From Flavobacteriales bacterium (lineage in GTDB: Bacteria; Bacteroidota; Bacteroidia; Flavobacteriales_F; PHOS-HE28): DNA of 64,000 nucleotides. The notes under the pieces were generated by a model. The model saw only the letters and a program-made list of their open reading frames with translations. It did no database searches and was not told where the DNA came from. Location of the stretch: NCBI GenBank assembly GCA_026129465.1, contig JAHCIA010000001.1, positions 3,243,583 to 3,307,582 of the forward strand. The letters are read 5' to 3'. A program made the position numbers and the translations under genes. This document shows, one piece after another, positions 3,598 to 22,687 of the stretch (its first letter is position 1; each line of letters begins with the position of its first letter).

Positions 3598-5526
3598 TCA
3601 GCGTACCACGGCCATCCGCTTGGTGCTGCGCGCACCATCCACGGTCAGCGTGTAGGTGTACATGCCTTGCGGCAGCAAACCCGTGTCGATGTCCATGCGG
3701 TAGTCGCCCGCGCCTTGGGTGCCGAAGAAGTTCTCCATCACCAGCTTGCCGCTGAGGTCGTGCATCTGGAAGGATACGTTCCCAGGACGCTCCAGCACGT
3801 AGGGTATGGTGGTCACATCGCTGGTGGGGTTGGGCATGTTCTGGCCCAGGCCGAAACCGGCGGCCATGTCCATTTCCTCCACCGAGACGTTCGATGGTGT
3901 CATGCGCAGACGCACCATGGGGATGAAGTTCAGGTAGAACCAGGTGGTGACGTTGGGGTGGTACACGATGGAAGACACCGGGAGCGCGAAGCCGCTGGTG
4001 GCCACGCGGGTGCGCAGGTCGCCGCCATAAGTGCGCACGCACACGGCGTATTCGACCCCCGCCTCCAACTGTATCGGTGCGAGCAGGTCCAGGTCGTAGA
4101 AGATGGCCTGTCCATTGGGCGTGAGTTCGGCGGTGTTCTGCACGGCCACGATGTCCGTCTCGCCCACGATCTGCGGGGGATCGGTGTCGAAGCGGTAGAT
4201 CACCCCGTCGAAAGCGGCGCCCACCTGGGTGCCGGGAGTGGCCCCTGCCGCACGTGCCAAGGCGATCTGCACCCCATGCGCGGTGGCCGTATTCTCGATC
4301 CAGTACAGGTTGCCCGCGTGGTACTCCGGCCATTGGCCACCGCTTTGTGCGCGGTCATAGGCATTGTCGCGTGCGTTGTTGTCGTACGCATAGATGCCGG
4401 GCGATACGCGGAAGCGGCGCTCAGCCGTGTTGTCCACCGTGCGCTCATCGGGCACGCTCATGCTCAGGTTGTAGTTCACCTTGTACTCGCCTTCCACAGC
4501 CGGAGGTGTGAAGTCCGAGCGGAGGTTGTTCGTCACCACCGCCTGGGCGAGGCTGGCCACGGAAGGATCGGCGTTGAAGACAGGGGCGTTCGCCGGATCG
4601 AGCACCTGCAGGTCGAGCGCCACGTTGTTGGCGACGTTGGAACCCTCGTTGCGCACGGGGCTGCCAAGGCTAAGCGGGCGCAGCTGGCTGTAAGGATAGA
4701 TCGTGTAGGGCAGCACATCGGTGAAGGAGTCGAACACCACGAAGTTGGCGATCCGGGGATCCACCAGACCCACATCATTGTCGTAGCTCTCGTACACATA
4801 TACATCGTCGATCTGCCAGTGGTAGTGGCTCAAGTTGCCTGTGGCCGAACCTTCATGTGCCCAACGGATGCGCACGTTGCCGGGGTTGGAGGCGATGAAG
4901 GAGTGCAGGTTCACACGCATCGTGTAAGTGCCGGGGTCCAGGTTCACGAACTGGTCCTTGATCGCCTCTATGCGCGTGGGCCAGGTGGCGCCGCCGTCGG
5001 TGCTCACATCCACAAAGTGGCCCGAAGCGCCCGAGCAGCACCAACGCAGGCGTTGGGTCCACTCCAAGTGCGCATAAGGCGTGGTGCTCAGATCCATCAC
5101 GGGCGACACCAGGTAGCCATCCCAAGTGACACAGCTGTTGGTGTTCACACAGCCGTTGTTGGCCAGGTTGCTGTCGAAGATCATGAAGCCATTGGCCACC
5201 GATGCGCTCTGGATGCGTTCTGCGGTGCTGCTGAAATCGCCATTGGGGCCGTCGGTGTCATAAAGCCAGGTGGAACCGTGCGGACCTGTTGTGGTCCAGG
5301 CGCCAAGGGGTGTGTTGCCCGCCAGGCCGTTCGCGAAGTTCTCGTAGAAGAGCACGTCACCACCGGCCTTGGCCATGCCATCGCGCGAAGCGTTGTTCTG
5401 GCCCCAGGGCAGTTCCGCCTCCTCCCAATGGGAGAGCACGGGTTGGATCTGGATCTGCGGGCGCTGCGCATGGACCGTGGCGGCCACCGCCAGCAAAGGC
5501 AGTATCGAAGTGTATCGTAGGGTCAT
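3598..5526 (-). CDS. T9SS-secreted protein, paralog B (choice-of-anchor-J-like, CARDB-like, T9SS CTD)
   Basis: 642-aa ORF. Signal peptide MTLRYTSILPLLAVAATVHAQ. N-domain LFYENFANGL...AWTT. C-terminal CTD (HDLSGKLV...GMYTYTLTVDGARSTKRMAVVR). Confidence 0.7.
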   Translation of the reverse strand: MTLRYTSILPLLAVAATVHAQRPQIQIQPVLSHWEEAELPWGQNNASRDGMAKAGGDVLFYENFANGLAGNTPLGAWTTTGPHGSTWLYDTDGPNGDFSSTAERIQSASVANGFMIFDSNLANNGCVNTNSCVTWDGYLVSPVMDLSTTPYAHLEWTQRLRWCCSGASGHFVDVSTDGGATWPTRIEAIKDQFVNLDPGTYTMRVNLHSFIASNPGNVRIRWAHEGSATGNLSHYHWQIDDVYVYESYDNDVGLVDPRIANFVVFDSFTDVLPYTIYPYSQLRPLSLGSPVRNEGSNVANNVALDLQVLDPANAPVFNADPSVASLAQAVVTNNLRSDFTPPAVEGEYKVNYNLSMSVPDERTVDNTAERRFRVSPGIYAYDNNARDNAYDRAQSGGQWPEYHAGNLYWIENTATAHGVQIALARAAGATPGTQVGAAFDGVIYRFDTDPPQIVGETDIVAVQNTAELTPNGQAIFYDLDLLAPIQLEAGVEYAVCVRTYGGDLRTRVATSGFALPVSSIVYHPNVTTWFYLNFIPMVRLRMTPSNVSVEEMDMAAGFGLGQNMPNPTSDVTTIPYVLERPGNVSFQMHDLSGKLVMENFFGTQGAGDYRMDIDTGLLPQGMYTYTLTVDGARSTKRMAVVR

Positions 5527-11292: not shown

Positions 11293-12570
11293 ATGAGCAC
11301 CTTCGAGAACACCCTCGCTTTCGCACGGTCCCGCGACGCCGCCGATCCCCTGCGGGCATTCCGCCAGGAGTTCCACTTCCCACAGCATGAGGGGCGTGAC
11401 GTCCTCTACTTCACCGGCAACTCGTTGGGCCTGCAGCCGAAGTCCGCTGCCGAAGCGCTGAAGCAGGAGCTGGGCGACTGGGCACGCCATGGGGTGGAGG
11501 GGCATTTCCACGCGAAGCACCCATGGTACAGCTACCACGAGGAACTTACGCCCATGCTGGCCCGGCTGGTGGGTGCGCTGCCTGAAGAGGTGGTGGCCAT
11601 GAACCAGCTTACCAGCAACCTGCACTTCCTGATGGTGTCGTTCTACAGACCATCAGGGAAGCGGAGGATGATCCTCACCGAAACGCGGCCCTTCCCCAGC
11701 GACACTTACGCCTTCGCTTCGCAGATCGCCTACCACGGCGGTGATCCGGAAAAGGATCTGGTCGAAGTACAACCCCGCGCTGGCGAACACACCCTGCGCA
11801 CCGAGGACATCGTTGCGCGGATCAACGAACTGGGTGATGAGCTCGCGCTGGTCTGCTTCGGCGGTGTCAACTTCTACACGGGCCAGGCCTTCGACATGGC
11901 CGCCATCACCCAGGCCGTGCACCATGTGGGTGCGGTTGCGGGCTTCGACCTGGCGCATGCGGCCGGCAACCTGCACCTGAAACTCCATGACTGGAATGTG
12001 GACTTCGCCTGCTGGTGCAGCTACAAGTACCTCAACAGCGGACCCGGCAGTGTGGCCGGCGCATTCGTTCACCAGCGGCATCTGGGCAAAGGCCTGCCGC
12101 TTTTCGCCGGCTGGTGGGGCCATGACAAGGCTGAGCGGTTCAAGATGGAGCGCACCTTCAAGCCCATGCCCACGGCCGAAGCCTGGCAGGTGAGCAACGC
12201 GTCGGTGTTCGGCATGGCCGTGCACCGCGTGGCCCTGGAGCAGTTCGATCGCGCCGGTATCGCGAACCTGCGCGCCAAGAGCGAGCAACTCACCATGTAC
12301 CTCGAGTTCGTCATCACCGAAGTGGCGCAGGCGACCAACACCAAGCTGGAGATCATCACCCCCAGCGATCCCACCCAGCGCGGCGCCCAGCTCAGCATCC
12401 TCGCGCATGGCCATGGAAGGAACCTCTTCGACGGACTCACGCGCTGCGGCGTTGCTGCAGATTGGCGGGAACCCAACGTGATCCGCGTGGCCCCTGTGCC
12501 GATGTACAACAGCTTCGAGGATGTGTGGCGGTTCGGCCAGATGCTGCGAACATGTATTGTCCGCAACTGA
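11293..12570 (+). CDS. kynU: Kynureninase (PLP-dependent)
   Basis: 425-aa ORF. Full-length kynureninase-like sequence (FTGNSLGLQPK..., SYKYLNSGPG PLP-lysine region). Confidence 0.85.
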   Translation: MSTFENTLAFARSRDAADPLRAFRQEFHFPQHEGRDVLYFTGNSLGLQPKSAAEALKQELGDWARHGVEGHFHAKHPWYSYHEELTPMLARLVGALPEEVVAMNQLTSNLHFLMVSFYRPSGKRRMILTETRPFPSDTYAFASQIAYHGGDPEKDLVEVQPRAGEHTLRTEDIVARINELGDELALVCFGGVNFYTGQAFDMAAITQAVHHVGAVAGFDLAHAAGNLHLKLHDWNVDFACWCSYKYLNSGPGSVAGAFVHQRHLGKGLPLFAGWWGHDKAERFKMERTFKPMPTAEAWQVSNASVFGMAVHRVALEQFDRAGIANLRAKSEQLTMYLEFVITEVAQATNTKLEIITPSDPTQRGAQLSILAHGHGRNLFDGLTRCGVAADWREPNVIRVAPVPMYNSFEDVWRFGQMLRTCIVRN

Positions 12571-12595
12571 TGGTCGACCGATTATCCGATCCCCC

Positions 12596-13936
12596 ATGAA
12601 ACACATCACCATCGTCGGCGGCGGTCTCGTCGGAAGCCTGTTGACCGTTTTCCTGGCCAAGCGCGGCCACAAGATCAACGTGTACGAGCGCAGGCCCGAC
12701 CCGCGCAAGACCAACGTCTATGCCGGGCGCAGCATCAATCTGGTGGTGAGCCACCGTGGCTGGACGGCTCTGAAAGCGGCGGGTGTCCATGAAGCCGTAG
12801 AGCGCATCGTGGTGCCCGTGCATGCCCGGATGACGCATGACCGCGACGGCAAGCTCACCCGCCTGCCGTACAGCATCGACGAGCGTCCCATCCACAGCGT
12901 TTCGCGTGGTGAACTGAACAAGGTGATGCTCTCTGAAGCGGAGAGACTCCCCAATGTGAAGCTGCATTTCGGCCAGCGCTGTGCCGAGGTGGACCTGGAC
13001 AAGGCCACCTGCGTGTTCGAGAGCGATGCGGGCGAGCGCACCGAGGTGAAGGCCGACGTGGTCTTCGGCGCCGATGGCGCGCCCAGCGCGGTGCGCCAGG
13101 CCATGATGCGCGGCCGCTTCAACTTCAGCCAGAGCTTCATCGAGCACGACTACAAGGAGATCGCCTTCCCCAGCCATGCGGACGGCAGCCCGCAGATGGA
13201 CCCGCACTGCCTGCACATCTGGCCGCGCCGGCGGTTCATGATGATGGGCCTGGCCAACCAGGACGGCGGTTTCACCGGGACGCTCTTCATGCCGCATGAG
13301 GGCGAGTTCTCATTCGATACCATCAAGGACGAGCAGGACCTGATGCGCTTCTTCGAGGCCCACTTCAAGGACGCCATTAACATGCTGCCCGATCTGGCCG
13401 AGCAGTACTTCCGCAATCCGCAGAGCAACCTCGCCATCATCCGCTGCGGTCCTTGGACGCACAAGGAAAAGGTGGCGCTGATCGGCGACGCGGCCCATGC
13501 CATCGTGCCCTTCTATGGCGAAGGCATGAACGCTGGCTACGAGGACTGCAAGGTGCTGAACGACCTGCTCAACACCCACGGCGATGACAATTGGGCCACC
13601 GTGCTCGACGACTACAACAAGGCCCGCAAACCCAACGGCGATGCCATCGCCGACCTGTCGTTACGAAACTTCGTGGAGATGCGCGACCTGGTGGCCGACC
13701 CGCGCTTCATCCTGCGCAAAAAGATCGAGGGCCGCCTGCAGCAACGCCATCCGGACAAGTGGCTGCCGCTATACAGCCAGGTGAAGTTCAGCGACATCGC
13801 CTATATCGATGCCTGGAACGAGGGCCTGCGCCACGACCGTATCATGGAGCAGGTGCTGGCCATGCCGGGGATCGAGGAGAAGTGGGAGAGCGAGGAGGTG
13901 GAGAGGAAGGTGCTGGGGTTGTTGGGTGCTGTCTGA
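12596..13936 (+). CDS. kmo: Kynurenine 3-monooxygenase (FAD-dependent)
   Basis: Start at M26 of ORF 12521..13936 (MKHITIVGGGLVGSL, FAD-binding GxGxxG). Length and motifs fit bacterial KMO. It lies immediately downstream of kynU. Confidence 0.8.
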   Translation: MKHITIVGGGLVGSLLTVFLAKRGHKINVYERRPDPRKTNVYAGRSINLVVSHRGWTALKAAGVHEAVERIVVPVHARMTHDRDGKLTRLPYSIDERPIHSVSRGELNKVMLSEAERLPNVKLHFGQRCAEVDLDKATCVFESDAGERTEVKADVVFGADGAPSAVRQAMMRGRFNFSQSFIEHDYKEIAFPSHADGSPQMDPHCLHIWPRRRFMMMGLANQDGGFTGTLFMPHEGEFSFDTIKDEQDLMRFFEAHFKDAINMLPDLAEQYFRNPQSNLAIIRCGPWTHKEKVALIGDAAHAIVPFYGEGMNAGYEDCKVLNDLLNTHGDDNWATVLDDYNKARKPNGDAIADLSLRNFVEMRDLVADPRFILRKKIEGRLQQRHPDKWLPLYSQVKFSDIAYIDAWNEGLRHDRIMEQVLAMPGIEEKWESEEVERKVLGLLGAV

Positions 13937-14022
13937 TGCGTGGCTGATCCCCACAGCCCCGCGTTGACACTTTGCCCGCCTTTGATGCGTTGCATGGTCG
14001 AGCCCCGACCAATTTCGTGTTG

Positions 14023-14874
14023 ATGCATCGCCCGCTTGTGCTGCTGCTTGTCTTCCTGCTGGCCTGGCCCACTTTCGGGCAGGGCCTCATGTCGCGCAAG
14101 CGCCCGGACCTGATACCCTTGGATGGCAAGATCCGGCGCATGGGCTTCTATGTCGCACCGGGCGTCACTTACACACTCCCGCGCTTCAAGAACAGCGAGG
14201 AGGAACTGTATCGCGATGGCGACACCAGCCTGACCGCCCTCTACGATCCCAATGGCCGCTTCGGACTCTACCTGGAGGGCGGTGTGAGCTGGTACACACG
14301 CGACCCCGTGGTGGTGGACTACTTCGATGTGGGCCTGGCCTACAAGAACCTGCGGGGCCAGGAGGCCTTCGAGAACACCTTCACCCGGGCCGACAGTGTG
14401 GCGTTGTTCCGCGGTGAGGGCACTTTCGCCGAGCGGTTCATCTCCCTGCACGCCAACGCCAACAAGTTCATCCAGGTGCGCAACTACCAGTTCATCCAAC
14501 TGAGCCTGGGCCTGAATGCCGACTACCGTTTGGGCAGCAGCTACGACCACCCGGGAGACTCCCTGCTCAACGGCCACACTTTTCCGCCGGACCTGATCGG
14601 GCAGCTGCACTTCAAACTGGGCTACGGCTTCAAGGTCACGGGCAGCCTGTTCATCATTCCCGCCTTGGAGACGCCCATCTTCAGCGTGGTGCCCGAGGAC
14701 CAGGGATCCGGCCAGCTGCAATGGTTCAGCAGCCGATACCGCCCCATGATGCTCAGCGTGCGTTTCCTATGGCTGCGCGCGCGCAAGGGCTTCGACTGCC
14801 CGCCGGTGATCAAGCACAACGACTTCGAGAAACAGCGGGTGAAGGAGTACAAGCCGAAGACCTACCACCCCTGA
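14023..14874 (+). CDS. Hypothetical secreted / outer-membrane protein
   Basis: ORF 13972..14874 with the start moved to M18 (MHRPLVLLLVFLLAWPTFGQ signal peptide). The alternating beta-strand-like composition suggests a beta-barrel. No family recognised. Confidence 0.45.
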   Translation: MHRPLVLLLVFLLAWPTFGQGLMSRKRPDLIPLDGKIRRMGFYVAPGVTYTLPRFKNSEEELYRDGDTSLTALYDPNGRFGLYLEGGVSWYTRDPVVVDYFDVGLAYKNLRGQEAFENTFTRADSVALFRGEGTFAERFISLHANANKFIQVRNYQFIQLSLGLNADYRLGSSYDHPGDSLLNGHTFPPDLIGQLHFKLGYGFKVTGSLFIIPALETPIFSVVPEDQGSGQLQWFSSRYRPMMLSVRFLWLRARKGFDCPPVIKHNDFEKQRVKEYKPKTYHP

Positions 14875-14878
14875 GCGT

Positions 14879-15514
14879 TCAGCGCAGGAAGGGGTTGCTG
14901 CGGCGCTCGCGGCCGATGGTGGTGTCCGGCCCGTGGCCGCAATGCACCACGGTATCGTCCGGCAGCGTCAGAAATTTGTCTCGGATGCTGCTGAGCAGCG
15001 TATCCAGGTCGCCGCCGGGCAGATCGTAGCGGCCGATGCTGCCCTGGAAGAGCACGTCGCCGCCGATGATGAATTTCTCCTCTGGACAGTGGAGGGCGAT
15101 GTGGCCCGGAGCATGCCCGGGCACGTGCAGCACTTCAAGCGTCAGCCCTCCGACGGCGACCAGATCACCTTCTTCCAGGAAGCCCTCCGGTTCGGGCGAG
15201 GGTTCGCACGGCACGCCGTAGAGCTGGCCTTGGCGCGGTGCGGCTTCCAGCAGGGCCAGGTCGGCGCGGTGCATCCAGGGGCGCAGGCCGAAGCGCTTGT
15301 GCACCCAAGCATTGCCCAGGACATGGTCGATGTGCGCATGGGTGAGCACAAGACGCACGGGGGTGATCGCGTTCCGCTGGAGGAATTCCTCCAGCGCATG
15401 CTCCTCGCTACGGTTCCAGCAGCCCGGATCCACCAGGATGGCCTCGCCGCCGTGGTGCACGATCCACGTGTTCTCCTGGAAAGGATTGAAGGTGAGCGAG
15501 GACGCGTTCGGCAT
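14879..15514 (-). CDS. MBL-fold metallo-hydrolase (glyoxalase II-like)
   Basis: Start at M50 of ORF 14879..15661. Motifs HAHIDH and HVPGHAPGH are typical of the metallo-beta-lactamase fold. Confidence 0.75.
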   Translation of the reverse strand: MPNASSLTFNPFQENTWIVHHGGEAILVDPGCWNRSEEHALEEFLQRNAITPVRLVLTHAHIDHVLGNAWVHKRFGLRPWMHRADLALLEAAPRQGQLYGVPCEPSPEPEGFLEEGDLVAVGGLTLEVLHVPGHAPGHIALHCPEEKFIIGGDVLFQGSIGRYDLPGGDLDTLLSSIRDKFLTLPDDTVVHCGHGPDTTIGRERRSNPFLR

Positions 15515-15583: not shown

Positions 15584-18500
15584 GTGCGTCGCCCCAAGTC
15601 CATGTGCCGTGCCGCCCTCGCTGGCGTGCTGCTGGCCTTCGCCGGTGCGGGCCAGGGGCAATTCTACTCAGGCTCGCAGCAGCAGTACGGCAAGAACCGG
15701 GTGCAGTACCAGGACTTCCTCTGGCAGCAGTACCGCTTCCCGGAGATGGAGGTGTACTTCTATAAGGAGGGCCGCGATCTGGCGCGCTACACCGCACAGA
15801 GCGCCACGCGCCAGTTGAAGGAGCTGGAGCGCGAGTTCGACTTCGCGCTGGACGAGCGCCTGCAATTCATCGTGTACAACTCGCTCACCGATTTCCGGCA
15901 GAGCAACATCGGCCTGGAGGGCATCGAGGGCGACAACAACATCGGGGGCATGACCCGCATAGTGGGCACGAAGATCTTCGTGTACTTCGAGGGCGACCAT
16001 GTGCTGTTGGACCGCCAGATCCGCAGCGGCATCGCGCATGTGATCATCGACCAGATGATGTTCGGTGGCAACTGGCGCGAGATGCTGCGCAACGCCACCT
16101 TCATGAGCCTGCCCGCGTGGTTCACGGACGGGATCATCTCCTACCACAGCCGCCCCTGGGACGCCGAGTTGAACAACCGCATCCGCGACGGCATGCTGGC
16201 GGGGCGATACGACAAGATCAACCGGTTGGAGGGGCAGGACGCGCGCTTCATGGGCCATGCGCTGTGGAAGTACGTGGCCGACGTGTACGGCCCGGGCGTG
16301 ATACCCAACATCCTGTACATGACCCGCGTGAGCCGCAATGCCGAGAGCGGGTTCCTCTTTGTTCTGGGCGTATCGCTGAAGACCCTCACCGAGGAATGCC
16401 TGGCCTACTACAAGGGCCGCTTCAGTGAAGAGGACCGCATGCGTGCCGAGTTGCCCGGCGATCCGTTGCGCATCCGCACGCGGAAGCAGCGCACCTACAA
16501 TGAGTTCAAGATGAGCCCGGACGGCCGCCACCTGGCCTGGGTGAGCAACGAACTGGGGCAGTACAAGGTGTGGCTGTATGACGTGGAGAAGGGCAAGGCG
16601 AAGCGCATCGCCAAGGGCGAGAAAAAGATGGACCGCATCGTCGACCGGAGCTACCCCGTGCTCGCATGGCATCCCACGGGGCAGGCCCTCAGCTTCGCCC
16701 TCGAACGCAAGGGTCAGCTCTACATGCGCACCTACACGCTGGACGACCGCAAGACCACCGAGAAGCCGGTCTTCATGCTGAAGAAGATACTGAGCATGGA
16801 CTACTCGCCCGACGGCCGCAACATGGTGTTCAGCGCCGTGCGTGAAGGGCGGACCGACCTCTACTACTACCATGTGATCGGCAACCGGCAGGAGCAACTC
16901 ACGGACGACCAGTACGACGACCTCCATCCGCGTTTCGTGGACGGTGGCCGGCGCATCATCTTCAGCAGCGACCGCGCGGACGACACCTTGCGCACCAACG
17001 CCGATGTGGCCCTGGTGAACGGCTACAAGGACATCTTCCTCTACGACCTCGCCAACCGGTCGCCCATCCTTACGCGGCTGACCGCCACGCCCGACGCCAA
17101 TGAACTGATGCCCGCGCAGTACGACCAGCGCAACTACGCCTTCCTCAGCGACCGGGACGGCATCCTGAACCGTTACCTGGTGCGCTATGACAGTGTGGTG
17201 AGCCACATCGACACCACGGTGCACTACCGCTACTTCACCGTGGAGGAAAGGCTCACGGACCTGAGGCGCTCCATTCTGGAGCAGGACATCCATGCCGCGA
17301 AAGGGCGCTACACACAGTTGTTGTACAGCGATGGCCGGTACCGGTTCCACACCGCGCGCACCAGCGAGGACCGTGCGGCCAACACGCCTGCGCTCCCCGA
17401 TCTGGAAACCACCGATGGACAAGGAGGAGGAGGGAGCGAGGAGTTGCGTTCCGTGGTGAAGGTGCCACTACAAACGCCGAGACCCACCGGGGCCGATGCC
17501 GTGGACACGCGCAGCTATGTCTTCAGCGATGAGACCGACGGCCCGCGACCTGCGGCGAGGCAGGTGCCCCCGGGTGCGCGCCCGGCCGTGGCCGAAGCCC
17601 AGCCGGACACGGTGGCCCCCGTGCCCTTCACCTACCCTGAACAGCGCAACTACAACGTGAACTTCACCGTGGACCAGGTGATCACGCAGGTGGACAACAG
17701 TTTCTCCAGCCACTTCTACCAGCCCTTCACGGGGCCCAACTCCCTGAATCCCGGCCTCAGCGCGCTCACGCGCATGGGCGCCAGCGACCTCTTCGAGGAC
17801 CACCGTGTGGTGGGTGGCTTCCGCCTGGCGCTGGACCTGAACAACAACGACTACCTGCTGAGCTACGAGAACGTGAAGCGGCGGCTGGACAAGCGTTTCA
17901 CCTTCCAGCGCCAGAGCTACCAGGGCCTCACGCAGTTCACCGTGCTGAAGGTGCATACGCACAACTTCAGGTACCAGGTCAGCTGGCCTTTCAGTGAACT
18001 GGCCAGCATCCGCGCCAGCGTGATGTACCGCAACGACCGCTTCGTGCTGCAGGCCATCGATCCGCTGAGCCTGCGCGCGCCCAACTTCAACGACAACATG
18101 GTGGGCGGCAAACTGGAGTACGTCTACGACAGCTCGCTGCCACGCGGCCTGAACCTGTGGACCGGCTGGCGCTTGAAGTGGTTCGCGGAGTACTACGTGC
18201 AGCCGGACGACACCCAAAGCGACATGCAGGTGCTGGGCATGGACCTGCGCCACAGCCTGAAGATCCATCGGGAGCTGATCTGGGTGAACCGGCTGGCGGG
18301 CGCCACTTCCATGGGCAGCCGGCGCATCATCCATTTCCTCGGCGGCGTGGACAACTGGCTGTTCGCGCGGGTGGACAACACCATCCCGATCGATCCCACG
18401 CAGAACTACTTCTACCAGACCATGGGCGTGCCCATGCGCGGCTTCCTCTATAACGTGCGCAACGGCAACAGCTTCGCCGTGGTGAACAGCGAGCTGCGTG

Positions 18501-18826
18501 TGCCCATCATCCGCTACCTGGTCAACCGCCCGATCCGGTCTGACCTGTTCAACCATCTGCAGATCGCGGCCTTCGCCGACCTGGGCACGGCATGGACCGG
18601 CCCCGATCCCTATTCGGAGGAGAATTCCTTCAACCAGTTCACCATCTTCCGCAATCCGCTCACCATCACGTTGGACAACCAGCGCGAGCCGATCGTGGCC
18701 GGCTATGGCTTCGGCATCCGCAGCCGGCTGCTGGGCTACTTCGTCCGCGCCGACTGGGCCTGGGGTATCGATGACGGGGTGGTGCAGCCGCGCGTGTTCT
18801 ACTTCTCCCTCAGCCTGGACATCTGA
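15584..18826 (+). CDS. Large outer-membrane protein with an N-terminal unknown domain, PD40/TolB-like beta-propeller repeats and a C-terminal Omp85 (surface antigen D15)-like beta-barrel
   Basis: 1080-aa ORF; the alternative start is the ATG at 15602 (MCRAALAGVLLAFAGAGQG signal peptide). PD40 repeats are MSPDGRHLAWVS, DYSPDGRNMVFSA and RIIFSSDR. The C-terminus (GYGFGIRSRLLGYFVRADWAWGI...FYFSLSLDI) resembles the Omp85 barrel terminus. Confidence 0.6.
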   Translation: MRRPKSMCRAALAGVLLAFAGAGQGQFYSGSQQQYGKNRVQYQDFLWQQYRFPEMEVYFYKEGRDLARYTAQSATRQLKELEREFDFALDERLQFIVYNSLTDFRQSNIGLEGIEGDNNIGGMTRIVGTKIFVYFEGDHVLLDRQIRSGIAHVIIDQMMFGGNWREMLRNATFMSLPAWFTDGIISYHSRPWDAELNNRIRDGMLAGRYDKINRLEGQDARFMGHALWKYVADVYGPGVIPNILYMTRVSRNAESGFLFVLGVSLKTLTEECLAYYKGRFSEEDRMRAELPGDPLRIRTRKQRTYNEFKMSPDGRHLAWVSNELGQYKVWLYDVEKGKAKRIAKGEKKMDRIVDRSYPVLAWHPTGQALSFALERKGQLYMRTYTLDDRKTTEKPVFMLKKILSMDYSPDGRNMVFSAVREGRTDLYYYHVIGNRQEQLTDDQYDDLHPRFVDGGRRIIFSSDRADDTLRTNADVALVNGYKDIFLYDLANRSPILTRLTATPDANELMPAQYDQRNYAFLSDRDGILNRYLVRYDSVVSHIDTTVHYRYFTVEERLTDLRRSILEQDIHAAKGRYTQLLYSDGRYRFHTARTSEDRAANTPALPDLETTDGQGGGGSEELRSVVKVPLQTPRPTGADAVDTRSYVFSDETDGPRPAARQVPPGARPAVAEAQPDTVAPVPFTYPEQRNYNVNFTVDQVITQVDNSFSSHFYQPFTGPNSLNPGLSALTRMGASDLFEDHRVVGGFRLALDLNNNDYLLSYENVKRRLDKRFTFQRQSYQGLTQFTVLKVHTHNFRYQVSWPFSELASIRASVMYRNDRFVLQAIDPLSLRAPNFNDNMVGGKLEYVYDSSLPRGLNLWTGWRLKWFAEYYVQPDDTQSDMQVLGMDLRHSLKIHRELIWVNRLAGATSMGSRRIIHFLGGVDNWLFARVDNTIPIDPTQNYFYQTMGVPMRGFLYNVRNGNSFAVVNSELRVPIIRYLVNRPIRSDLFNHLQIAAFADLGTAWTGPDPYSEENSFNQFTIFRNPLTITLDNQREPIVAGYGFGIRSRLLGYFVRADWAWGIDDGVVQPRVFYFSLSLDI

Positions 18827-19200
18827 TGATCATCGATACCCAGACCATCGGACTGCTCATCATCACCGGTCTGCTTGCCGGTATCCTCAGCGGATTCGTA
18901 GGTGTGGGCGGTGGCATCATCATGGTCCCCGCATTGGTGTGGCTGCTGGGCTACTCGCAGCATCAGGCGCAGGGCACCAGCCTGGCCGTGCTCATGTTCC
19001 CCGTGGTATTCATGGCCGTGCGCAACTATTACCGTGCGGGCATGATCGACCCCAAGGTGGTGCTGGTGATCGCGCTCGCCTTCATCGCCGGCGGCTACTT
19101 CGGAAGCAAATGGGCGCTGGCCTTGCACGCCGGTACGGTGCAGCGCATCTTCGGCGTGGTGATGCTGCTGGCCGCCCTCAAACTCATCTTCGGGAAGTGA
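18826..19200 (+). CDS. Sulfite exporter TauE/SafE-family (TSUP) membrane protein, half-size (4 TM)
   Basis: 124-aa ORF. Gly-rich TM helices (GFVGVGGGIIMVPALV). The start overlaps the upstream stop (TGATG) and the stop overlaps the downstream start. Confidence 0.6.
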   Translation: MIIDTQTIGLLIITGLLAGILSGFVGVGGGIIMVPALVWLLGYSQHQAQGTSLAVLMFPVVFMAVRNYYRAGMIDPKVVLVIALAFIAGGYFGSKWALALHAGTVQRIFGVVMLLAALKLIFGK

Positions 19201-20429
19201 TGGCTCCAGCTCCGCTCAGCCTTGCGGTGCGCGATGGGATCGCAGCGCTGCATGGCGACATGGTAAGCTGGCGGCGGCATCTGCACCGGCATCCGGAACT
19301 CTCATTCCAGGAGCGGAACACGGCATTGTATGTGGCGGACAAGTTGAAGGCCGAGGGGATCGCGGTGCGTGAAGGTGTGGGCAAACTCACGCCAGATGCG
19401 CCAGGAACTGGACTCATCGCCTTCGTCAGAGGAGAGGCCGGACCAGGCGACAACTGTTTCGCCCTGCGTGCCGACCTGGACGCATTGCCGATCGCGGAGT
19501 CCGGCAAGCCGGCGTATCGATCCACCAACCCCGGTGTGATGCACGCCTGCGGGCACGATGCGCACACGGCCATGGTGCTGGGCGCGGGCATCGCCTTGCA
19601 CCGCTTGCGCAAGGCCTGGAGCGGCACGGTGATGCTGGTGTTCCAACCCGGCGAGGAGAAGGAACCCGGGGGCGCTGCGTTGCTGATCCGTGAAGGCGTC
19701 TTCAACGATCCGAAACCCGCGGGCATCCTAGGCCAGCACGTCACACCCGAGCTGATCACGGGAATGGTGGCCTTCCGCGGTGGTCCTTTCATGGCCGCGG
19801 CGGATGAACTCTACCTCACCATCAAAGGCAGAGGAGGACATGCCGCTGTGCGCGATACGCTCGTGGATCCCATCGTGATCATGTCAGCGATGCTTCCCGC
19901 GCTGTACGATGAAGCGCGCCGTTCCATTCCGCCCGAGGAACCCATGGTGCTGAGCTTCGGCAGGGTGATCGCCAACGGTGCCACGAACATCGTTCCGGAC
20001 GAAGTGACCTTGGAAGGCACCTTGAGGACCTTCGATGAAGGCACACGCGCCGCGATGCATGCGTTGTTGCAGGAGCGTTGCCTCGCCCTCGCCCAGGAGC
20101 GGGGTGGTGGCGCTGAGTTGCGGATCGTGAAGGGATCACCGGTGGTGAAGAACGACGACGCCCTCACGGCGCGGATGCGACAAGCCGCCGTGGAGTACCT
20201 GGGCCCTGACCGCGTGCTTGATGCGCCCATGCGCATGGGTGCGGAAGACTTCGCCTACTACACGCAAGTGATGCCCGGCTGTTTCTACCGCCTGGGTACC
20301 GGCGACCCTGCCAAGCCCGGAACCACCTGTGGGTTGCATACGGCGGCCTTCGATGTGGACGAGGATGCCCTGCCGATCGGCGCGGGACTCATGGCGTGGG
20401 CCGCTATCAAGGCCTTGGCCGCTGGCTGA
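19200..20429 (+). CDS. M20-family amidohydrolase (N-acyl-L-amino acid amidohydrolase / hippurate hydrolase-like)
   Basis: Start at MAPAPLSLAV inside ORF 18498..20429. Motifs HACGHDAHT and FQPGEE are typical of M20D peptidases. Confidence 0.85.
   Translation: MAPAPLSLAVRDGIAALHGDMVSWRRHLHRHPELSFQERNTALYVADKLKAEGIAVREGVGKLTPDAPGTGLIAFVRGEAGPGDNCFALRADLDALPIAESGKPAYRSTNPGVMHACGHDAHTAMVLGAGIALHRLRKAWSGTVMLVFQPGEEKEPGGAALLIREGVFNDPKPAGILGQHVTPELITGMVAFRGGPFMAAADELYLTIKGRGGHAAVRDTLVDPIVIMSAMLPALYDEARRSIPPEEPMVLSFGRVIANGATNIVPDEVTLEGTLRTFDEGTRAAMHALLQERCLALAQERGGGAELRIVKGSPVVKNDDALTARMRQAAVEYLGPDRVLDAPMRMGAEDFAYYTQVMPGCFYRLGTGDPAKPGTTCGLHTAAFDVDEDALPIGAGLMAWAAIKALAAG

Positions 20430-20500: not shown

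Positions 20501-22687
<2,187 letters not shown>

Follow-up and report, generated by a model that had tools for sequence, protein, structure and literature searches.

Can three genes that are stitched together by overlapping stop and start codons be taken for one functional unit? This question is raised by a plus-strand trio in a Flavobacteriales bacterium (assembly GCA_026129465.1, contig JAHCIA010000001.1), which lies within a stretch of 64,000 nucleotides, hereafter the window, whose first letter is position 1 in the coordinates given below. Gene 1 encodes a putative outer-membrane protein in which a beta-propeller precedes an Omp85-type barrel, gene 2 a half-size membrane protein of the TSUP/TauE family (half-TSUP), and gene 3 an M20D-type amidohydrolase (Table 1). 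According to the open reading frame (ORF) list and the window itself, both junctions read TGATG: the A of the gene 1 stop TGA (18824-18826) is the first base of the gene 2 ATG, and the A of the gene 2 stop TGA (19198-19200) is the first base of the gene 3 ATG. The ORFs and the junctions are thus as the original prediction, made from the sequence alone, had described them. That prediction went on to read the tight coupling as a single functional unit, in which an outer-membrane gate, a small inner-membrane channel and a cytoplasmic enzyme would serve the uptake or processing of N-acyl amino acids or peptides, and it recognized no described system in the arrangement. In the present study, we arrived at a different answer, in which the gene 1 product is a member of a family already catalogued by computation and the two downstream genes are its old but optional neighbors.

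Architecture of the gene 1 protein

Read from its N-terminus, the gene 1 product very probably consists of a signal peptide, a gluzincin-fold domain, a six-bladed TolB-like propeller, a linker and an Omp85 barrel, and belongs to the WD40-like Omp85 family. The ORF encodes 1080 residues from the GTG at 15584 and alternatively 1074 residues from the ATG at 15602; the longer form is NCBI MCW5900324.1, "PD40 domain-containing protein [Flavobacteriales bacterium]", and a database protein identical to the shorter form begins at the ATG. Residues are numbered here on the 1080-residue form, and the numbering of the full-length AlphaFold2 (AF2) model is obtained by subtracting 6.

That the arrangement was undescribed did not hold, since the propeller-plus-Omp85 architecture is already catalogued computationally as the "WD40-like Omp85" cluster. 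Heinz and Lithgow (2014) recognized ten groups in the Omp85/TpsB superfamily. One of these, "WD40-Omp85", has a TolB-propeller-like N-terminal part and was likened by them to a BamA-BamB fusion (PMC4104836). Their supplementary table gives, for about 90 WD40-Omp85 proteins, fold matches to BamA/TamA (4k3b, 4c00) and TolB (2w8b, 2ivz), and for most members a further match to an M1 aminopeptidase or collagenase fold (1z5h, 4kxd, 3qnf, 4ar1) at the extreme N-terminus; the class has Bacteroidetes members and was defined by computation only (PMC4104836). The same three folds (BamA/TamA, TolB and aminopeptidase-like) were recovered in the gene 1 product, and the assignment is based on this shared architecture and on the published fold matches rather than on clustering with the published member sequences. 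Three features go beyond that paper: HExxH is lost completely in this Bacteroidota branch, the linker is long and disordered, and an M20D/half-TSUP neighborhood recurs. The family is large: a profile search returned 1290 clusters of a 50%-identity library at E<=1e-30, the best 150 of which are mostly full length with 31-47% identity to the gene 1 product. Additionally, a study of TamL in Flavobacterium johnsoniae has no such protein among its TamA homologues.

When the N-terminal domain was modeled alone with AF2, it reached a predicted local distance difference test (pLDDT) score of 77 and a predicted template modeling (pTM) score of 0.71, and a fold search matched it to the catalytic domain of gluzincins (thermolysin-like); furthermore, one distant homologue carries a precomputed Pfam match to Peptidase_MA_2. 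The place of the HExxH motif is taken by H152-V-I-I-D156, and relatives read EVIIN, QVILN, TVILN and so on at this point. In the first 330 residues of 140 full-length representatives, HExxH did not occur once. An active periplasmic metalloprotease was accordingly ruled out, and the absence of the motif makes the gluzincin-fold domain a pseudo-peptidase that is catalytically dead.

The predicted cleavage point of the signal peptide lies before Gln26. The sequence A/G-QFY at this point is conserved in 99 relatives, with the Gln invariant, and cleavage here appears to fit the "Q-rule" that has been described for signal peptidase I substrates of Bacteroidota (PMC5837995). The mature N-terminus that would result, QFYSGSQQQYGKNRVQYQDFLWQQYRF (residues 26-52), counts among the best-conserved segments in the family, but its pLDDT is below 50 in both AlphaFold models. 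This segment could be one that binds a partner or plugs the barrel.

For the propeller there is a Pfam PD40 match (E 1.4e-11), and Foldseek retrieved TolB and BamA with the model of the gene 1 product; S9 and tricorn-type peptidases are also among its fold matches. The likeness to TolB of the Tol-Pal system is confined to the propeller (TIGR02800, 70.7 bits against a cut-off of 343), which in the gene 1 product is fused to a membrane barrel, and neither tolQRA nor pal was found in the flanks of the trio, which hold kyn, kmo, MBL-fold and recQ genes. The linker that follows is poorly conserved in sequence, with a mean top-residue frequency of 0.25-0.34 versus 0.55-0.74 elsewhere in the protein.

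As for the barrel, two motifs are regarded as the essential signature of Omp85 proteins, namely (V/I)RG(Y/F) at the tip of loop 6 (L6) and (F/G)xDxG on strand 13 (PMC7644211; PMC12611786), and in all solved Omp85 structures a salt bridge between them holds L6 in the lumen, which it partly blocks (PMC7644211). Both can be found in the gene 1 product, as M951-R-G-F954 and as F997-A-D-L-G1001. Relatives of about 37-100% identity retain them almost without exception: [MLV]RGF was read in 98 of 99, the first position being M or L rather than V/I, and FxDxG in all 99. The full-length AF2 model, built from a 51-sequence alignment (mean pLDDT 65), has, in model numbering, a helical N-terminal domain, a propeller at 298-586 (pLDDT 80-90), a disordered stretch at 591-735 and a C-terminal barrel of the BamA/TamA/FhaC type, so that the barrel and propeller of the original prediction reappear in the model with moderate confidence. 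Its remark that POTRA repeats are missing was also borne out: PF07244 has no match in the gene 1 product, and AF2 places a disordered linker before the barrel, not a POTRA fold. BamA, TamA, TamL and TpsB were rejected as identities of the gene 1 product on account of the missing POTRA and of very low model scores, the TamL model matching 84 residues with 19.8 bits against a cut-off of 400. The barrel sequence is very divergent.

The order of N-terminal domains, long flexible linker and C-terminal Omp85 barrel brings to mind the PlpD-type proteins (PMC4104836), in which a patatin passenger, likewise a non-POTRA domain, sits on the same chain as the barrel. By analogy with this type Vd secretion, the gene 1 barrel might translocate its own N-terminal domains by way of the linker and display the propeller and the gluzincin module on the cell surface for binding, which would agree with a linker that is kept at the same place across relatives, with few alignment gaps, though not in sequence. 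PlpD, however, has a POTRA between passenger and barrel, and the gene 1 product has none; nor does its passenger-like part carry a catalytic motif. Moreover, no data place the domains outside the cell, and the closest relatives of the propeller are the periplasmic TolB proteins. We consider such self-export very unlikely.

The two downstream genes

The gene 2 product matches the Pfam family PF01925 (81.9 bits against a gathering score of 32.6, E 7e-23) at profile positions 127-237 of 237 only, and is predicted from this match to be a single repeat of four transmembrane segments (TMS) that corresponds to the second repeat of a TSUP/TauE transporter. TSUP proteins have 4+4 TMS, which arose by internal duplication (PMC7176098). 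The gene 2 product thus resembles the TSUP/TauE/SafE family (TC 2.A.102) in scoring above the PF01925 threshold, but it does not have the full 4+4 (7-9 TMS) topology, being one repeat unit of 124 residues compared with about 280. No solved structure was matched by its sequence. We rejected the notion of a truncated pseudogene, because there are thousands of homologues of equal length: a profile of 17 half-TSUPs gave at least 7995 matches at E<=1e-5 (7995 of 8000 scored candidates), and the 120 matches listed measure 120-150 residues, nearly all of them 120-135. Half-size transporters have a precedent in the SemiSWEETs; the active form of the gene 2 product is probably a dimer that combines two 4-TMS units. 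In Bacteroidota, half-size TSUP/TauE proteins (117-135 residues) make up a very large family, and such a "semi-TSUP", presumably dimeric, may merit a look of its own.

The gene 3 product, which begins at an ATG internal to a longer ORF opening at 18498, exceeds the cut-off of TIGR01891 by a factor of two (309.6 bits versus 153.75) and matches Peptidase_M20 (E 2e-36) together with M20_dimer. No signal peptide can be read from its sequence. Its closest solved relatives are Bacillus subtilis YxeP, plant ILL2, Staphylococcus aureus Sapep and the N-acyl-glutamine aminoacylase of Corynebacterium, all M20D amidohydrolases to which the likeness extends over the full length (E 6e-63 to 9e-44). Unlike the family, the substrate could not be assigned at the equivalog level, as CpsA (297 versus 500) and DoeB2 (224 versus 550) stay below their cut-offs. 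On the whole, the domain assignments of the original prediction (Omp85 barrel, PD40, TauE and M20D) stand in profile searches, with the Pfam Omp85 match below its gathering score.

Conservation of the neighborhood

From the layout we infer that the trio is a compact, co-transcribed operon. Between 15.4 and 20.5 kb on the plus strand, scans that model Bacteroidota signals poorly gave no terminator-like site, no sigma-70-like site and no TAnnTTTG box. This box, the -7 promoter element of Bacteroidota, occurs 13 times in the whole window versus 4.9 expected from shuffles, and is not found within or just upstream of the trio.

Two sets of relatives were compared. The close set comprises 80 loci from a species-level genome collection, all from uncultured Flavobacteriales, at 58-88% identity. 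Here the entire region, from the kynurenine genes (kyn and kmo) through orf300, the MBL-fold gene on the minus strand, the Omp85 gene (omp), the half-TSUP gene (TauE) and the M20D gene (M20) to recQ on the minus strand, is syntenic throughout, and for this reason the close set says little on functional linkage. Nonetheless, of the 68 loci whose downstream sequence is long enough, 58 read omp-TauE-M20 and 10 omp-M20, without the half-TSUP; the gap to M20 was 3 nt in 9 of the 11 omp-M20 loci listed.

The distant set is more informative. It holds 84 non-redundant loci, collected by a further search for homologues and by scanning metagenomes, at 37-46% identity and with a guanine-cytosine (GC) content of 28-55% versus 63% here; downstream counts refer to the 62 loci with at least 1.7 kb of downstream sequence. 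Among these we found 12 omp-TauE-M20, 15 omp-M20 and 5 omp-TauE arrangements and 30 loci with neither partner, so that the neighborhood does recur in distant relatives (M20D follows the Omp85 gene in 27 of 62, the half-TSUP in 17 of 62), but is lacking from about half of them. The comparator neighbors were lost almost completely, with kmo retained in 3 of 84 loci, kyn in 2, recQ in 2 and orf300 in none. Close spacing is also conserved, with median gaps of 35 nt for omp-TauE (a few up to several hundred), 3 nt for TauE-M20 and 16 nt for omp-M20; the TGATG overlaps themselves vary, and relatives show -1, +3, +6 or some tens of nt. Furthermore, the (TauE)-M20 arrangement was present in both major halves of the tree of Omp85 proteins (neighbor-joining, midpoint-rooted) and occurred behind two different upstream genes, either the MBL-fold gene or a gene for a triple-DUF1573 protein. 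The MBL-fold gene is found ahead of the Omp85 gene, in opposite orientation, in 75 of 75 close loci and in 29 of 72 distant ones, and in another clade its place is taken by the 366-residue triple-DUF1573 protein.

Adjacency on both sides of the tree and under different upstream genes, set against the near-total loss of the other neighbors, indicates a linkage that is old and far from random. We regard it as likely, with good confidence, that the linkage of M20D and half-TSUP to the Omp85 gene is ancient but facultative. The partnership is a genuine, previously unremarked, optional neighborhood.

Is it then the single functional unit that the original prediction saw in the tight coupling? Several results weigh against this step. 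In one clade the downstream slot is filled, at a gap of 1-2 nt, by a 145-residue PNPOx_N (YhbP-like) gene instead of M20D (Table 1), and four loci (L097, L099, L107 and L135) have the half-TSUP followed by the PNPOx-like gene. As this unrelated gene is placed equally tightly, tight coupling is a property of whatever follows the Omp85 gene. The omission of one or both partners in the loci counted above points the same way. Moreover, in a reverse look-up, 4 of 7 half-TSUP genes were found about 10 nt downstream of an Omp85 homologue of 1064-1119 residues (two of these, one of them in a 2.8-Mb Cryomorphaceae record, without M20), while the other 3 (L170, L173 and L174; gene at 5001-5375) adjoin mltG/yceG and murB, with no Omp85 gene next to them.

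The same results lend themselves to a plainer explanation, that of an operon of convenience, in which common transcription and a long shared past would not amount to a common pathway: the Omp85 protein would act alone, and any small housekeeping gene downstream would merely be co-expressed. The interchange of M20D, half-TSUP and PNPOx-like genes in the downstream slot would be expected in that case, as would the switching of the upstream neighbor between MBL-fold and DUF1573 genes and the loss of both partners from half of the lineages; additionally, the three products of the trio belong to three compartments and have no known common substrate. Against it stands an M20D/half-TSUP adjacency that survives at 37-46% identity and over a GC range of 28-55%, where kyn, kmo and recQ have nearly all gone, that occurs in both halves of the tree with different upstream genes, and that was met again in 4 of 7 independent look-ups of the half-TSUP. 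We hold this explanation to be unlikely, though by no means far-fetched.

Proposed function

What, then, might the gene 1 protein do? The kept L6-locking motifs, together with the protein- and peptide-binding folds of the tethered domains, make envelope protein handling its most likely job. We propose that the protein would be exported and cleaved before Gln26, and that its C-terminal ~390 residues would fold into an outer-membrane barrel of the Omp85 type, to which the ~95-residue flexible linker would tether the propeller and the dead gluzincin-fold domain. By the default topology of Omp85 proteins, these two domains would lie in the periplasm, where they may bind an unfolded or peptide-like client that the barrel would then insert or translocate. 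The half-TSUP dimer would reside in the inner membrane and the M20D amidohydrolase in the cytoplasm. Because about half of the related lineages do not have them beside the Omp85 gene, both would be old, frequently retained, co-expressed accessory genes and not obligatory subunits. The whole proposal, a POTRA-less WD40-like Omp85 protein for envelope protein handling with two accessory co-expressed partners, is one whose chances we hold to be about even.

In such a scheme, a single chain would unite what corresponds to BamA, a BamB-like propeller and a BepA-like inactive metalloprotease module. In the BAM system of E. coli these are separate proteins, namely BamA itself, the propeller lipoprotein BamB and BepA, an M48 metalloprotease with a zincin fold that doubles as a BAM chaperone. 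The differences are considerable: BamA has POTRA and the gene 1 product none, the BamB propeller is eight-bladed whereas that of gene 1 is six-bladed and TolB-like, and BepA belongs to M48 whereas the gene 1 zincin module is M1/M9/M30-like and inactive. The comparison is one of resemblance in possible working, not of membership, and a BAM-like client-handling function of the gene 1 product, drawn from this analogy, is suggested tentatively and may well be wrong.

Several points weigh against our reading. The full-length AF2 model is of moderate quality, with a pLDDT of 60-85 in the barrel and the first ~50 barrel residues poorly modeled, and the Pfam Omp85 family (PF01103) scores 19.8 bits in the gene 1 product versus a gathering score of 24 and was undetected in 30 of 30 distant members at E<=0.01. 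Without POTRA, the way in which BamA receives its clients is not simply transferable, and the periplasmic site of the N-terminal domains is assumed. As for the locus, the scans for promoters and terminators fit Bacteroidota signals poorly and hence are weak evidence, the neighbor-joining tree is a rough one that lacks support values, and the persistence of gene order can reflect common descent instead of common function. Finally, literature searches on the WD40-like Omp85 class gave no experimental work on any member.

The alternative closest to the original prediction is an uptake route, in which the propeller and the peptidase-like domain would capture N-acyl amino acids or peptides, the barrel would admit them, the half-TSUP dimer would carry them or their product inward, and M20D would deacylate or cleave them. 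The adjacency of the genes, being non-random and old, is in its favor, as is the half-TSUP, which, when present, follows the Omp85 gene, usually closely (median 35 nt), and was so placed in 4 of 7 sampled cases. So are the chemistry of the M20D relatives, which act on N-acyl amino acids and dipeptides, and the example of the S9/tricorn-type peptidases among our fold matches, in which propeller and peptidase-fold modules gate the access of peptides. The open gate that this route needs is, however, at odds with the barrel, which has kept the L6 lid-lock motifs that in solved Omp85 proteins partly block the lumen; with these motifs kept, the insertion or translocation of proteins is a likelier role for the barrel than that of an open solute gate. 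To our knowledge, the import of solutes has not been described for any Omp85 protein. The genes fit no better, given that of the 62 distant loci 30 have no partner at all, 15 are without the transporter and 5 without the enzyme, that in another clade the slot is occupied by a PNPOx-like gene at 1-2 nt, and that half-TSUP genes also occur away from the Omp85 gene, beside mltG and murB. With the peptidase-like domain catalytically dead as well, we consider an uptake route improbable.

A more speculative thought is that the trio might make up an undescribed pathway of envelope turnover, with one component each in the outer membrane, the inner membrane and the cytoplasm, which would act on amide-linked compounds of the Bacteroidota envelope. 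Candidate substrates can be drawn from the chemistry of TSUP (sulfonate and sulfite) and of M20D (N-acyl amino acids), and by analogy could include N-acyl amino-acid lipids, sulfonolipids or peptidoglycan-derived peptides. The propeller and the dead peptidase could then act as the substrate receptor, and the MBL-fold and PNPOx-like neighbors as alternative downstream enzymes. We rate this as highly improbable.

Flanking genes and features of the region

The features discussed are collected in Table 1. The MBL-fold protein (metallo-beta-lactamase fold), encoded divergently from gene 1, has a weak GloB or persulfide-dioxygenase-type likeness that stays under the cut-offs. The same kyn-kmo pairing precedes the Omp85 locus in the close clade and, among the distant contigs, in a few (L085, L086 and L175). 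The 300-residue product of orf300 has no Pfam or NCBIfam match, and the gene is conserved at its position, between the kynurenine genes and the MBL-fold gene, only in the close Flavobacteriales clade. The GC content of the window, 60-67%, is unusually high for Flavobacteriales.

Table 1. Features of the trio, its surroundings and the comparison loci
Feature	Position	Strand	Basis or remark
Gene 1, WD40-like (TolB-propeller) Omp85-family outer-membrane protein (putative)	15584-18826 (alternative start 15602)	+	ORF, homologue start, NCBI record
Signal peptide (predicted)	15584-15658	+	Read from sequence; cleavage before Q26 (AGQG/QFY) predicted
Mature N-terminus, residues 26-52	15659-15739	+	
Gluzincin-fold pseudo-peptidase domain, residues ~26-292	15659-16459	+	Separate AF2 model, fold match
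H152-V-I-I-D156 at the HExxH position	16037-16051	+	
Six-bladed TolB-like beta-propeller, residues ~300-595	16481-17368	+	PD40 match, AF2 model
Pro/Ala/Gly-rich linker, residues ~596-690, ~95 residues	17369-17653	+	Predicted disordered, pLDDT <50
Omp85-type beta-barrel, residues ~691-1080, about 16-17 strands (predicted)	17654-18823	+	AF2 model, motifs
Loop-6 motif	18434-18445	+	
Strand-13 motif	18572-18586	+	
Gene 2, half-size TSUP/TauE membrane protein, 124 residues	18826-19200	+	PF01925 match
Gene 3, M20D-type amidohydrolase, 409 residues	19200-20429	+	TIGR01891, Peptidase_M20 and M20_dimer
Kynureninase and kynurenine 3-monooxygenase genes, adjacent	11293-13936	+	Upstream of the trio
orf300, 300 residues, signal-peptide-like start	13972-14874	+	Between kynurenine genes and MBL-fold gene
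MBL-fold hydrolase, 211 residues, divergent from gene 1	14879-15514	-	Lactamase_B, E 1.6e-36
recQ, converging on the trio from downstream	20501-22687	-	ORF list, profile match
PNPOx_N-type genes of comparison loci	L083 9284-9730; L108 8321-8755; also L101, L102, L109, L123, L131, L134, L165		

Implications

The outer-membrane biogenesis of Bacteroidota has recently been shown to be substantially unlike the E. coli model (PMC12611786), and the WD40-like Omp85 proteins constitute a large family that has been a computational category since 2014, with no function assigned to it. If the partnership with M20D and half-TSUP is not functional, the locus is an ordinary member of this uncharacterized family; if it is, an Omp85 protein would be linked to small-molecule metabolism, which would be new. 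In either case, the family offers several handles for experiments, namely the dead but conserved gluzincin fold, the kept barrel motifs, the odd conservation of the N-terminus and the linker, and an operon partnership that is old and yet dispensable.

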